NCBI GenBank assembly: GCA_951406725.2
Contig: OX597815.1
Location: forward strand, 20,088,001-20,152,000
DNA length: 64,000 nt
Direction: 5' to 3'
DNA from: Octopus vulgaris
Lineage: Eukaryota
A program made the position numbers and the translations under genes. Below, one piece after another: positions 19,334 to 55,619 of the stretch; the stretch's first letter is position 1; every line of letters begins with the position of its first letter. Below the pieces are notes generated by a model, which saw nothing but the letters and a program-made list of their open reading frames with translations, did no database searches and was not told where the DNA came from.

Positions 19334-19371
19334 TCTTTAACGTTTCGAGCCTACGCTCTTCAACAGAAAGA
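19334..19371 (-). ncRNA. Hammerhead-like fold with variant core CUGUUGA in the 3' pseudo-LTR
   Basis: TCTTT CTGTTGA A GAGC-GTAG-GCTC GAA ACGT T AAAGA. Confidence 0.7.
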
Positions 19372-20205
19372 TACACAGAGAGAAAAAAAACACAGAAAGA
19401 AGGAGAGAAAAAAATGCGTGCAGTAACTAACGAATCAACATGGCGATCTGATTTCGGCCAGAGGTCAAAGATCAAACATGAGACGCGAGAGCGAAATAAG
19501 GGGAGATAATAGGGTTGATAATAGGGTTGAATGACCAGCTATTAGTGCGTAGGAGGGGTCTGGACGTGTGTATGTATAGGGTTGGTGTATGTATTAGTAT
19601 GTATAAGGGTGTGTGTGTGTGTGTGTGTATGAGAGAGTATTAGTGCGTAGGATAGGTCTGGACGTGCGTATGTATGGGGTTGGTGTATGTATTAGTATGT
19701 ATTAGTACGTATTAGTATGTATAAGTGTGTGTGTGTGTATGAGAGAGTATAAGTGCGTATGAGGGGTCTGGACGTGTGTATGTATAGGGTTGGTGTATGT
19801 ATTAGTATGTATTAGTATGTATTAGTACGTATTAGTATGTATTAGTTGGTGTATGTATTAGTATGGCACATCATATATGATGTGATGTGTAAAGTCGTGT
19901 GGTGTGGTGAGGAGAAGAGGGGAAGGGGGAAGAGGGGGAAGGGGAGGGGAAGAATAGGGGGAGGAGAGGGGGGAAGAGGAGAGGGGGAAGAGGAGAGGGG
20001 GGGAGAAGGGAGGGAGGAAGGAGGGGGGAGGAAGGAGGAAAGAGGGAGAGGGGGAGAGAGAAGGGGAGTGAGGGAGCAGAGGGAAGGGGAAGAGGGAATG
20101 AGGGAGGGTGAATGAAGGAAGAAGGGAAGGGGAGTAGGGGTGAAAGGATGAAGGACTGAAGAAGTAGGGGTCGGGGGGAAGGATAGATGAGGAGGGGAGA
20201 GGGGG

Positions 20206-23107
20206 TTAGATGAGGAGGGGGGCGAGTTGAGACCAAATGGCGTATAAGAGCGAAGAGAGAAGATTAATTCCTGTTCACGGCGCAAACGGGAATCCGGATG
20301 GCCTCTGTGTAAGGACAAACCGAACACAGATAGGTGTTGCAAGGAGTGACCGGTGGAGCGGAAATGGCGTGAGACCGGTGTGTCGTTCGCAAGGTGGATG
20401 TCACGAAGGTGTTCCGCGAACCGGTCAGCCAAGCGGCGTCCCGTTTGTCCGATGTACAAGGAATTGCAGAGAGAGCAAGAGACGCAATAGATAATATTGC
20501 TGGAGGTGCAGGTGAAGGAGTGGATGATGGGATAGGGTCGATGGTGGGTGCTAGTGAGGCGGGTGGTGTTGGAGAGGTAAGGGCAAGTGCGGCAACGTGG
20601 GCGGGAGCAGGGGAACGAGCCGGGTTGGGAGGTAGGGTCAGGGAAGGAGCTATGGACCAAAAGGTCTCGAAGGTTGTGGGCTCGTTTGAAAGAGGGGAGG
20701 GGTCGGTTAGGGAAGAGGTGTGAAGTGGACGGGTCGGACTGGAGATGACGGAAAGCTCGAAGAATGGTGCGTTGGAGACGTAGGGTCGTGGGGTGGTAAG
20801 TGAGGGGAAAAGGGAGGCGGGAGACTACAGGGCGGGTTCGAGGAGAGAGAGCAGATACACGGTCCACGGACCGTGCTCTGGCAAGGGCGGTGTGGATAGT
20901 GGTGAGGGGTTATCCACGTAGGGTGAAGTGGTGAGCCATGCGTTGAGACTGAGTCTCAAAGTCATGGTCGTCACTACAGAGCCTACGTAGACGGAGGAAT
21001 TGGGAATAGGGGATGGAAAGCTTGGTGTGTTCTTGGTGGGAGGAAGAGAAGTTGAGGTATGAGTGTGAGTCTGTGTGTTTGTAGTGAATGGAGGTGGTAA
21101 GAGTGGAGTGAAGAATGCTAACCGAAATGTCGAGGAAGGAGACAGAGGTGTTGGAGATAGTGGAAGTGAAGTGGAGGGCTGGATGGAAAGATTGGACGAA
21201 AGAGAGGAAGGAATCTAGATGTTCACGGGAGAGTGAGGTGGCACCAATAATGTCGTCAATGTAACGACCATATAGTTCAGGAGTGGGACCAGTGAAATTA
21301 GAGAATATTTGGGCCTCAACATAGCCAACGAACAGGTTCGCATAGTTGGGGCCCATTCGCGTTCCCATGGCCACTCCCGAGACCTGATGGTAGAACTCGC
21401 CCGCGAACGAGAAGCAGTTCAGAGTAAGGACAAGTTCGGCCAGACGAATGAGTGTGGAGGTGTCAGGTACAGGGTTAGAGCGGAGGTCAAGAAAGTGTCG
21501 AAGGGCCTGCAGTCCTTCGTGGTGAGGGATAACAGTATAGAGGCTTTGGATGTCCATAGTAAAAAGGATTTTGGAGGAGCCGGGAGGAAAGGAGAAAGAG
21601 TTGAAAAGCCGGAGAGCATGGTTGGTATCGTGGATGTGGGAGGGAAGAGATGCCACTAGGGGGGCAAGGACACGGTCGAGGTATTTAGAGGTGAGCTCCG
21701 TGGGGCAGTTACAGGCGGAGACGGTGGGGCGGCCAGGGTTGTTGGGTTTGTGGATTTTGGGGAGGAAGTAAATGGTGGGGGTACGTGGGGTTCGCACAAT
21801 TAGGTTGGATGCGGTGCGGGGGAGACGGGAGGACGAGATGAGGTCGCGGACAGTAGAGGATACCGTCTGTTGGTAGCTACGTGTGGGGTTAGAGGGCAGA
21901 GGGGAATAGAAGGAGGTGTCATTGAGTTGGCGGAAAGCCTCGGCCCTATAGAGGTCGGCGCGCCACACCACTACAGCTCCACCCTTGTCAGCCGGTTTGA
22001 TGATAATGTCAGCGCGCCGTTGGAGGGAACGAAGAGCCAAGAGCTCAGCCGGGGAGATGTTGAGGCGGCGTTGGCGCCTGGAGAAGTTGAACCGCTCCAA
22101 TGCACGCTGACAAGCGCCCGCGAAAAGATCCACTGCTAGGATCTGGCCAGGGGCAGGCGTCCACGGGGATGGTCGGCGGCCCAGGCCAGTGAAGCAGTCC
22201 ACTTCGTTGGGTGTGGGTGGCGAGTCGTGGTAATGCGCACCCAACCGGACACGGCGCACAAAGGTGTGGACATCAACTCGCGTCTGGAATTCCTTACAGG
22301 ATGGAGTGAGGGGGATGAAACGCAGACCCCTACCAAGGACGGAGCGTTCAGCCGCAGAGAGGGGAAGATCGGGGGAATGGTAACAACAGACGGAAGTGGA
22401 GAAGGGGTGGGGGGAATAGAAGTAGGAGGGGTGGTAGGTCTCGTGGAGGTCTGAGGGGGAGGGATTGGGGAGGTGTGTGGGGGTGGTTGTGGGGGCAGTA
22501 GGGTTAGGTGTAGGTGGATGGAGCCTATCGGGAGGGGAGAAGGGGTTGTAGGGAGGGGCAGTGGGGTTAGGTGTGGGTGGATGGAGCCTATCGGGAGGGG
22601 AGAAGGGTGGTGGAGGAGTTGGGGTAGTGGCGTCGGGTAGGGTGCAATGGAAGAGTGATTGGAGTTTACGAAGTTTGGTATCAGAAAGAAATTGATGGAA
22701 GAGTTGATTCAAATAGATAATGAAGCGTAGCGTGTTTGGAGCATAGAGAGGCGGCAGAGAGGAGAAGAAGGTGGAGAAAGCAGGAGGAAGAAGGCGGTTG
22801 ATGGCATGTAGTTTGGAGAGATTGGAGCGAATGGTGGCCCGCATAAGGCGGTAAGATGTGGTGCGGAGTATGGGTAAGATGGAAGAATCCGAGTGGAGAG
22901 CAGGGTGGAAGTGGAGGCGGAAACCTTTAGGGATGAGTCGGTGATGTAGGCAGCGGCTTAGGAAAGAGACATGGCTAGAGATCGGGTTTTTTTAAAAAGA
23001 AGTAGAGAGAGATTAACGGACGGCTGAAGGCAATATACAGGAAGCGAACGGAGATGATCCTTCAAACGGTGATGGAGGGTGAGGAGGTAGGACCTAGGAT
23101 CCGGCAT
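20206..23107 (-). pseudogene. Penelope-like ORF: N-terminal domain, reverse transcriptase, Cys-rich linker, GIY-YIG endonuclease (interrupted)
   Basis: HVSFLSRCLHHRLIPKGF, IKPADKGGAVVV, YFLPKIHK..PGRP, MDIQSLYTVIPH, GVAMGTRMGPNYANLF, RYIDD, FLD, CSRPRCRTC, NIIYCVSCSLCNSLYIGQTGRRLADRFAEH, REQELI..L....PFGLN. ORFs 20910-22844 and 19842-20867 are in frame across one TAA (RG* for RGY). Frameshift near the 22987-22998 homopolymers. End coordinate is inferred. Confidence 0.93.
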
Positions 23108-23827
23108 GATGGGATAGCGGAAAAAAAACATTCGAAAAAACAAAAAAAACAAAAAACAAAAAATTATCGTATGAAAAAAATAGAAAAAAAGGATAGCGAA
23201 AAAAGGGGAAAAAACAAACGTTCAAAAAAACAAAAAAATAATAATCGTATGAAAAAACTAGATAAGTAAGCGATAGGGGCAAAAAGACGGGGCAAACGGA
23301 AAAGGGAAAGAAAGAAGGGAAGCAGAGAGAGGGGGAGGCAAAAAAAGGGGGTGCAGGCAGAGGAAACAGAGTATGGACATCCAGAGAGGGAAGAAAGACG
23401 GAAAGGAGAACAAAAATGCAGGAAAATGTGGAAAGCATGAAATGAATGTAAAAAAAGTGGTAATATATGAGAAAATAAAAATACAACAAACGGGACAGTT
23501 TATGCGAACAAGTTCAAGGTTGAAAGTTCAAGGTGAGAAATGTGTAGACGTCGTGGTATATTTTTTAAGGACTTCACATCAATGCAAAGTCACTTTGATC
23601 CGCGAAAGAGAGGTGCAGCCAATGGTAAGTATCCAAGAGGTAAAGAAAATCCAAGGTAGAGGTAAGTGTTGATAGTGGTATTGGTAGAATATAGGATGAA
23701 AGTGAGACCACGTGAGCGCATAATATATAACGGGAAGCTTTATGAAAATAGACAAAAGACGAAGGCAGGTGGAAAACAAACAAACAATTGTATTAGTATG
23801 GCGCTCAGGAAATATAAATAAAACAAG

Positions 23828-23865
23828 TCTTTAACGTTTCGAGCCTACGCTCTTCAACAGAAAGA
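23828..23865 (-). ncRNA. Hammerhead-like fold with variant core CUGUUGA in the 5' pseudo-LTR
   Basis: Identical to 19334-19371. Confidence 0.7.
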
Positions 23866-55153: not shown

Positions 55154-55228
<75 letters not shown>

Positions 55229-55379
55229 TGCATAAATTAGCCCTATGAACTTCTTGGACTATCTTATAAAACTCTCTGACGACTGGCGAAGCCTAGAGGC
55301 GCACCCAAGTATCCTAATTTTATCTACAGGTCGATACAGTACACTGCATTACCTCTGGATATCCTTGTTGCTTACTTTG

Positions 55380-55410
<31 letters not shown>

Positions 55411-55413
<3 letters not shown>

Positions 55414-55619
55414 GTCAGACGCCATGATAGATCGTTAGCTACAACATACATTTTTTTCTCTCCTTGCTTCTCTCCTTGTTTTTTTTCTGTGTATCTTTCT
55501 GTAGAAGAGCGTAGGCTCGAAACGTAAAAGACTTTTTCTATTCCCCAGCGCTATACTAATACATCTGTTTGTTTGTACACCACCTGCCTTCGTCTTTTGT
55601 TTATTTTCGTAAACTTTCC

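Follow-up and report, generated by a model that had tools for sequence, protein, structure and literature searches.

Why Penelope-like elements (PLEs) carry hammerhead motifs is disputed: the motifs have been seen as a means of processing into circles and, alternatively, as dispensable passengers. Lunse in 2017 reportedly dealt with about 150 000 PLE hammerheads. Here we describe a PLE of Octopus vulgaris found in a 64 000-nucleotide stretch of DNA, hereafter the window (GenBank assembly GCA_951406725.2, contig OX597815.1, positions 20 088 001–20 152 000), whose hammerhead motif reads CUGUNGA in place of the canonical CUGANGA, with U for A at core position 6 (U6 motif). Judged from sequence, both the motif and the element class are known, and the U6 form is a family-wide variant that has long been kept.

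The closest described motifs are the minimal hammerheads of metazoan PLEs (Cervera and De la Pena 2014, PMC4209133; this and the other papers are cited from excerpts), which have the consensus CUGANGAH, require dimers and cleave weakly in vitro. The U6 motif shares with them the type I layout, a helix I of 4–5 bp, an extra base between positions 9 and 10.1, the G10.1–C11.1 pair, a palindrome at 15.2–16.2, presence in both pseudo-long terminal repeats (pLTRs) and a predominance of solo truncated copies. It differs in having a helix II of only 4 bp, and in its core: the variant described in the excerpts of PMC4209133 is U3–A8, whereas here U6 is found in approximately 95% of active-lineage copies without a compensating core change. 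A natural pyrimidine at position 6 is known from phage Bcep176, where it is C (A6C) rather than U and the motif cleaves at <0.1 per min (Perreault 2011, PMC3088659); an A6C hammerhead is slow in Mg2+ and rescued by Mn2+ (Naghdi 2020, PMC7151607). The Bcep176 hammerhead is a single phage motif with ordinary helices, in contrast to a dimer-type motif fixed in approximately 19 000 retrotransposon copies. No natural U6 hammerhead was found reported in the titles, abstracts or passages of the literature searched, a coverage that excludes Lunse 2017 and several supplements.

In the PLE PAc Poseidon, the hammerhead requires the element's protein for cleavage, and insertion uses mainly uncut RNA (Frangieh 2024, PMC11167929). 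In this element, the only PLE reconstituted so far, the region of protein binding and reverse transcription start lies downstream of the hammerhead (PMC11167929). PAc Poseidon shares with the octopus element a reverse transcriptase (RT) with C-terminal GIY-YIG endonuclease, a pLTR hammerhead and AT-rich targets, while Neptune-clade PLEs share the Cys linker and the preference for (TA)n (Craig 2021, PMC8557442). The PAc hammerhead overlaps the start of its open reading frame (ORF), whereas the U6 motif lies some 750 nt upstream of the ATG (753 nt for the 5′ pLTR motif of the window, which is 4494 nt from that of the 3′ pLTR), and the excerpts of PMC11167929 report no core deviation for PAc. The parts of the octopus element and the related motifs of the window are as follows.

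19229–24653, minus strand: PLE, a partial tandem of pLTR, ORF and pLTR belonging to a young subfamily, with the ORF broken in this copy (from translation, profile matches and repeat comparison)
23723–24653, minus strand: 5′ pLTR, 97.4% identical to the 3′ pLTR over 937 columns
19229–20160, minus strand: 3′ pLTR, with the insertion end at a (TA)n run approximately 110 nt 3′ of H17
20910–23107, minus strand: 5′ part of the ORF and RT part; ATG near 23107, frame break after 49 codons, RT frame 22991–20910 with DKG and YIDD, in-frame stop at its end
19842–20909, minus strand: thumb, Cx4Cx2C linker and GIY-YIG endonuclease (YIGQTGR), extending into the pLTR
19308–19312, minus strand: GAGCG, 27 nt 3′ of H17, common to both lineages described below; predicted competitor for the GCUC strand of helix II
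19334–19371, minus strand: U6 motif of the 3′ pLTR, a minimal type I hammerhead with core CUGUUGA (C3 at 19366, U6 at 19363, N7 at 19362, H17 = U at 19339)
23828–23865, minus strand: U6 motif of the 5′ pLTR, core CTGTTGA (C3 at 23860, U6 at 23857, H17 = U)
27725–27761, minus strand: U6 motif in a short 3′-end remnant (approx. 27635–27788) between (TA)n runs; CUGUAGA at 27756, U6 at 27753, H17 = A, plus A14U
55494–55531, plus strand: U6 motif in a 3′-end remnant (approx. 55411–55622) between (TA)n runs; CUGUAGA at 55499, U6 at 55502, H17 = A
41517–41553, minus strand: A6 motif of the sister lineage, CUGACGA, with a 3-nt loop II and H17 = C

A preliminary description of the window had assigned the motif to Penelope pseudo-LTRs, and the element bears this out, with an RT and GIY-YIG ORF flanked by pLTRs that both contain the motif. 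The RT matched profile PF00078 (E 1.7e-7); the endonuclease matched PF01541 at E 0.008, weaker than the curated cut-off, though YIGQTGR is present. The Cys linker, DKG and CCHH residues are retained in the translation (CSRPRCRTC, KPADKGG and CSLC...EH...RH). RT and C-terminal GIY-YIG in a single ORF, partial tandems forming pLTRs and frequent 5′ truncation are all features of endonuclease-containing (EN+) PLEs, and by the criteria excerpted from PMC8557442 alone the element is of the Neptune/Nematis type, not Hydra or Naiad. Its best protein matches are 55–59% identical.

All four U6 motifs read, 5′ to 3′, CTTT-CTGT(T/A)GA-A-GAGC-GTAG-GCTC-GAAACGT-(T/A)-AAAG, save that the copy at 27725 is also altered at a second core position, A14U (GATACGT). 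Each has helix I (CTTT/AAAG), helix II (GAGC-GTAG-GCTC), a single extra A following A9 and the palindrome ACGT. The four positions and this layout had been correctly described beforehand; A14U is the only addition. A 27-nt pattern of the U6 motif matched the window exactly three times, and 100 shuffles gave no match. The features of minimal hammerheads are all in place (helices I and II, the extra base after A9, G10.1–C11.1 and a palindromic helix III), and checked against the hammerhead core (C3 U4 G5 A6 N7 G8 A9, G12 A13 A14, A15.1–U16.1, H17) only A6 deviates, U being present in 129 of the 134 copies sampled. Using the extra A to regain A6 by a shift of register was considered and rejected on reading the sequence, as no register retains both A6 and G8.

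The cassette at 41519 had been presented as a canonical counterpart of the same layout. It does read CTGACGA; it differs from the U6 motifs in having G as the extra purine, GTTT/AAAT as helix I and a 3-nt loop II, and the lineage it belongs to is mostly CCGACGA. It had also been expected that standard searches would miss U6. A CUGANGA descriptor fails on the U6 motif by construction, and the Rfam covariance models matched neither that motif nor the A6 motif at 41519 to a hammerhead (E ≤ 10); since the latter escapes too, the Rfam miss is not due to U6.

Genome-wide counts were made in a 2.8-Gb genome that includes the window, using a pattern with positions 6, 7 and loop II free. This pattern had 20 049 matches against 0 for a reversed control, and position 6 was U in 19 092 of them (95.2%), A in 364 and C or G in 593. 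A sample independent of the motif was picked by a word of the 3′ flank (21 541 genome matches), most of the first 100 places yielding 98 distinct copies; where the motif was retained and the filters were passed, U6 was present in 74 out of 75. The 134 sampled copies mentioned above come from a wider set of 156 distinct copies, 22 of which are truncated or without motif; two of its three A6 rows were first found because they bear A6. U6 is thus the family state, as had been proposed, and the opposite outcome envisaged, an A6 consensus with the U6 copies a minor dead lineage, does not hold. Among four public runs labelled with four organisms, one of them very shallow, alternative letters at ≥5% within 19335–19370 were seen at H17, one loop II base and N7, not at position 6; since the variant table is missing at least one N7 letter that is common, the absence of a row there does not prove constancy. 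The exact U6 pattern had 0 matches in metagenome contigs. A compensated helix II was seen only in scattered U6-lineage copies such as L112.

One hundred and twelve matches resembled two more U6 families with another helix II; they were rejected because the CTGTNGA has no helix I and is part of the long helix II of canonical CTGATGA/CTGAAGA motifs. One copy of the U6 lineage (G000:C5:39824866-39824912) has had its entire hammerhead motif deleted between its flanks.

By comparison of its copies, the U6 lineage is active, very abundant and also old. All 150 scored matches to a 203-amino-acid endonuclease stretch were 99–100% identical. Besides the window copy, eight young copies were checked; five have unbroken ORFs of 1072–1102 amino acids, three of these carry U6 in the 5′ and the 3′ pLTR alike, and in two pairs among the young copies the pLTRs show 0 mismatches. 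The earlier suggestion that U6 is compatible with transposition is supported by these intact copies. An endonuclease tree was built from 48 stretches, excluding six rows with doubtful motif calls, two duplicates and all but three of the near-identical young rows. A clade supported at 100/100 comprised 36 rows, 33 with U6 and three with A6, all three of the latter fetched for having A6; outside the clade only A6 was found. End branches of U6 rows ranged from ≤0.003 up to 0.07–0.20 changes per site. The tree fits a single gain of U6 on the stem of the lineage with later back-changes, the base of the clade leaving room for a small basal A6 group. Comparison of the youngest copy with the majority sequence of eight old-subfamily copies over 140 endonuclease codons gave a synonymous divergence (dS) of 0.72 and a non-synonymous divergence (dN) of 0.058, which indicates that U6 has passed through a long succession of protein-coding masters.

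Whether the motif is maintained was judged from 132 copies clustered on their flanks alone, giving seven subfamilies of at least four copies (one cluster of two was dropped). The majority rows of the seven differ within the 36-nt motif only at N7 (U, C, G or A) and H17 (A or U), confirming in seven subfamilies that these positions vary while U6 is constant. Changed columns numbered 0 of 11 in the core, 0 of 18 in the helices and 0 of 5 in loop II and the extra A, against 19 of 57 in the flank separating the motif from the anchor (core, p 0.019; the 29 columns of core and helices, p 1e-4; loop II and extra A, p 0.05–0.15). The possibility raised earlier, that the helices are no more conserved than the rest of the pLTR, is contradicted by these counts (0/29 versus 19/57). 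N7 and H17 are the positions that hammerhead chemistry leaves free. That just these two vary points to a hammerhead RNA fold rather than a DNA motif, and the column counts indicate that the fold is under selection. Across 18 motifs from three lineages (U6, sister and metagenome relatives), G8, G12, C3–G8, A9, A13, A14 and A15.1–U16.1 are invariant, while the helices covary, with 95.8% of helix cells paired and 13 cells changed on both sides (0 of 500 shuffles), figures inflated by relatedness. No selection on U6 itself was detectable, as the constancy of position 6 alone has a chance of approximately 0.5 at the observed synonymous divergence.

That last number, along with the single origin that suffices to account for U6, is what could be said for a dead relic, a motif carried passively in which U6 spread by hitchhiking and nothing is selected. 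Such a relic is largely refuted and we regard it as highly improbable: the 29 columns would remain unchanged at the synonymous rate with a chance of approximately 2e-8, in addition to their contrast with the flank, and the helices covary between lineages.

A second young lineage, the sister lineage, was reached through the 41519-type motif. Its RT and endonuclease are 74% and 61% identical to those of the U6 lineage (dS 1.35), and it has open frames of approximately 1008 codons. Its pattern had 15 560 genome matches. In a hand tally of the first 100 motifs listed, 98 had A6, none had U6 and 69 had C at position 4 (U4C, read as CCGA), the commonest core being CCGACGA. Because CCGA holds a CpG, a few of the CTGA copies may be decay products; four CCAA rows suggest about that number. 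Both currently active lineages are thus, on their majority cores, deviant in the CUGA turn. Among 80 related metagenome loci there were 15 descriptor matches, and the seven of closest layout all had A6, three of them CCGA; C4 is accordingly old or recurrent in the clade, and U6 is derived in one branch. A metagenome U6 match with a 2-bp helix I was judged a chance hit. CCGA reportedly leaves self-cleavage unaffected in a viroid hammerhead (PMC9608096, after Ambros and Flores 1998); it is the change seen in the sister lineage and in three of the seven closest metagenome motifs, with the difference that viroid-like RNAs have it as a minor variant and the 15 560-copy lineage here as its majority state.

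A GAGCG 20–27 nt 3′ of H17 is common to both lineages, being present in most copies, and absent from the metagenome relatives. In copies that have it, its predicted probability of pairing with the GCUC strand of helix II at 37°C ranges from 0.02 to 0.92. It is possible, as a guess from these predictions, that it acts as an off-switch. This would fit a more elaborate scheme in which U6 and the C4 of the sister are selected throttles rather than damage that is tolerated: the CUGA turn would have been detuned independently in each of the two competing lineages, keeping the ribozyme off during transcription and reverse transcription and allowing it on solely through the element's own protein or dimerization, with GAGCG as the off-switch strand. 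We consider this scheme unlikely. If true, it would be a natural case of a hammerhead core that departs from the A6 rule and is complemented by protein.

A side observation concerns the predicted monomers of A6/C7 motifs (41517–41553, L301 and L357), in which G5-A6-C7-G8 pairs with the C-G-U-H17 side and the palindrome is hidden. U6 alters this pairing, which may explain the free variation of N7 in the U6 lineage.

Traces of cleavage were sought in the insertions. These end approximately 110 nt 3′ of H17, approximately one copy in five begins 3′ of the motif, and approximately 76 of the 98 flank-picked copies extend through it. The position of the end and the copies that start beyond the motif argue that the motif is not where reverse transcription starts. 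Copies that extend through the motif imply a template with the motif intact, either uncut linear RNA or a religated circle, which cannot be distinguished from the genome. The 5′ junctions of (TA)n-flanked copies were tallied by hand: for the U6 lineage 100 of 374 rows were listed, from 51 distinct places, of which two complex ones were dropped. The remaining 49 gave no spike at the predicted cut, with three or four junctions at +1, four at +2, four at +3, three at +4 and eight in an upstream AAA run. Junctions between −1 and +4 made up 17 of these 49 places, versus 16 of 30 in the sister lineage (100 of 366 rows listed; p 0.16); both tallies are confounded by microhomology with the TA target and by the search design. 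The motif also occurs in four sequencing runs presumed to be RNA, as assembled contigs, from which RNA ends cannot be read. A double-hammerhead fold can be drawn for U6 and A6 motifs and is the predicted minimum for neither. At 37°C it lies 4.3–11.4 kcal/mol above two monomers for U6 and 2.6–12.9 kcal/mol for A6, so that the energies do not separate them.

The reading that we favour, at even chances, is that the motif is an attenuated ribozyme, likely dimer- and protein-assisted, that still cuts slowly after H17. U6 would have arisen once on the stem of the lineage and then been carried through all sampled subfamilies, with low residual cleavage after H17, probably only as a dimer and with the element's own protein. 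Reverse transcription, starting approximately 110 nt downstream, would have to proceed across a motif left uncut; because fast cutting would destroy templates, a weak cutter would cost little. An occasional cut, for 5′-end processing or circle formation, may still be worth keeping: all chemistry residues and the H17 rule are retained, which suggests that occasional cutting still matters. Precedents are the natural A6C and U4C variants and the protein-dependent PAc hammerhead. U6 and U4C are both at positions where natural variants are known to retain some activity, and the sister lineage is likely to have come to a similar state via U4C.

Several observations weigh against this. The predicted double hammerhead of the U6 motif is 4–11 kcal/mol less stable than two monomers, and the youngest sister subfamily has a U–U mismatch in helix I. 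Four more also speak for a different possibility, that catalysis has been lost and a hammerhead-shaped RNA retained as a folded or sequence signal, for RT–endonuclease binding, for dimerization via the ACGU palindrome, or as an export or translation element. First, the junctions lack a spike at the predicted cut. Second, loop II and the extra A vary no more than the core does across U6 subfamilies, hinting at sequence-specific recognition. Third, when a type III hammerhead was scanned pairwise, activity was low for every CUGA-turn change except a C3–G8 swap, and no second change rescued it (excerpts of PMC9901934). Fourth, ribozyme-dead mutants inserted undiminished in vitro, so that cleavage was dispensable there (PMC11167929). 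The signal reading also draws on the deviation of the CUGA turn in both young lineages and on the Naiad PLEs, which thrive without canonical hammerheads (PMC8557442). Against it, every chemistry residue has been retained over a dS of 0.72 within the lineage and 1.35 to the sister, and the deviations sit where active natural variants exist. As a subfamily state, H17 is A or U in the U6 lineage and A, C or U in the sister, and G in neither, though few changes underlie that; U6 and C4 together are never a subfamily state (0 U6 among the 100 sister motifs listed), likewise a weak point. The preliminary description had offered an RT-binding signal in particular, and this is weakened in that reverse transcription does not start at the motif and the PLE tested binds its protein downstream (PMC11167929). 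A non-cutting signal in general stands as a credible rival, to which we give somewhat less than an even chance.

The constancy of loop II and the extra A could also be read as full compensation, in which context (the extra A, the GUAG loop, dimer geometry or protein) restores a normal rate and there is no attenuation. In its favour, more matches were counted for the U6 lineage than for the sister (20 049 versus 15 560). However, no second core change goes with U6, the extra A and 4-nt loop are also found with A6 (L001 and L008), and the excerpts of PMC9901934 describe no pairwise rescue; we therefore consider full compensation improbable.

Two active lineages with more than 35 000 counted copies in one genome have the whole fold selected and the CUGA turn deviant, and relatives with A6 and U4 are available as controls. 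The U6 and C4 lineages thereby offer a natural test of whether PLEs need RNA self-cutting. For ribozyme chemistry, A6 would cease to be invariant in nature at scale, and for annotation, CUGANGA descriptors overlook those hammerhead-like motifs that had the highest count in this genome.

Adjoining the 3′ end of the element, 18545–19222 holds nested inverted repeats with 182-nt arms (99%), probably the head-to-head ends of another Penelope-like family; a hammerhead-like sequence with a canonical core lies here at 19016 on the plus strand (CTGACGA, helix II GAGGT/ACCTC, palindrome ACTCGAGT). Just upstream of the element, 24769–25144 and 26743–27126 are 384-nt inverted repeats (97–100%) 1.6 kb apart. 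Broken ORFs at 2895–4066 on the minus strand match a PIF1-like helicase (PF05970, E 2.8e-8) and are probably a Helitron-type remnant. A dispersed repeat family resembling short interspersed elements (SINEs) occurs in both orientations at 19–724, 14473–14713, 27276–27519, 46937–47364 and 51687–52982, its members 85–95% alike and with a 184-nt internal periodicity. Canonical CUGANGA hammerhead-like motifs were also seen in other repeat families (L094–L119, e.g. L095:1460-1540; L096, L097 and L040), one of which has an unusually long insert at the helix II position.

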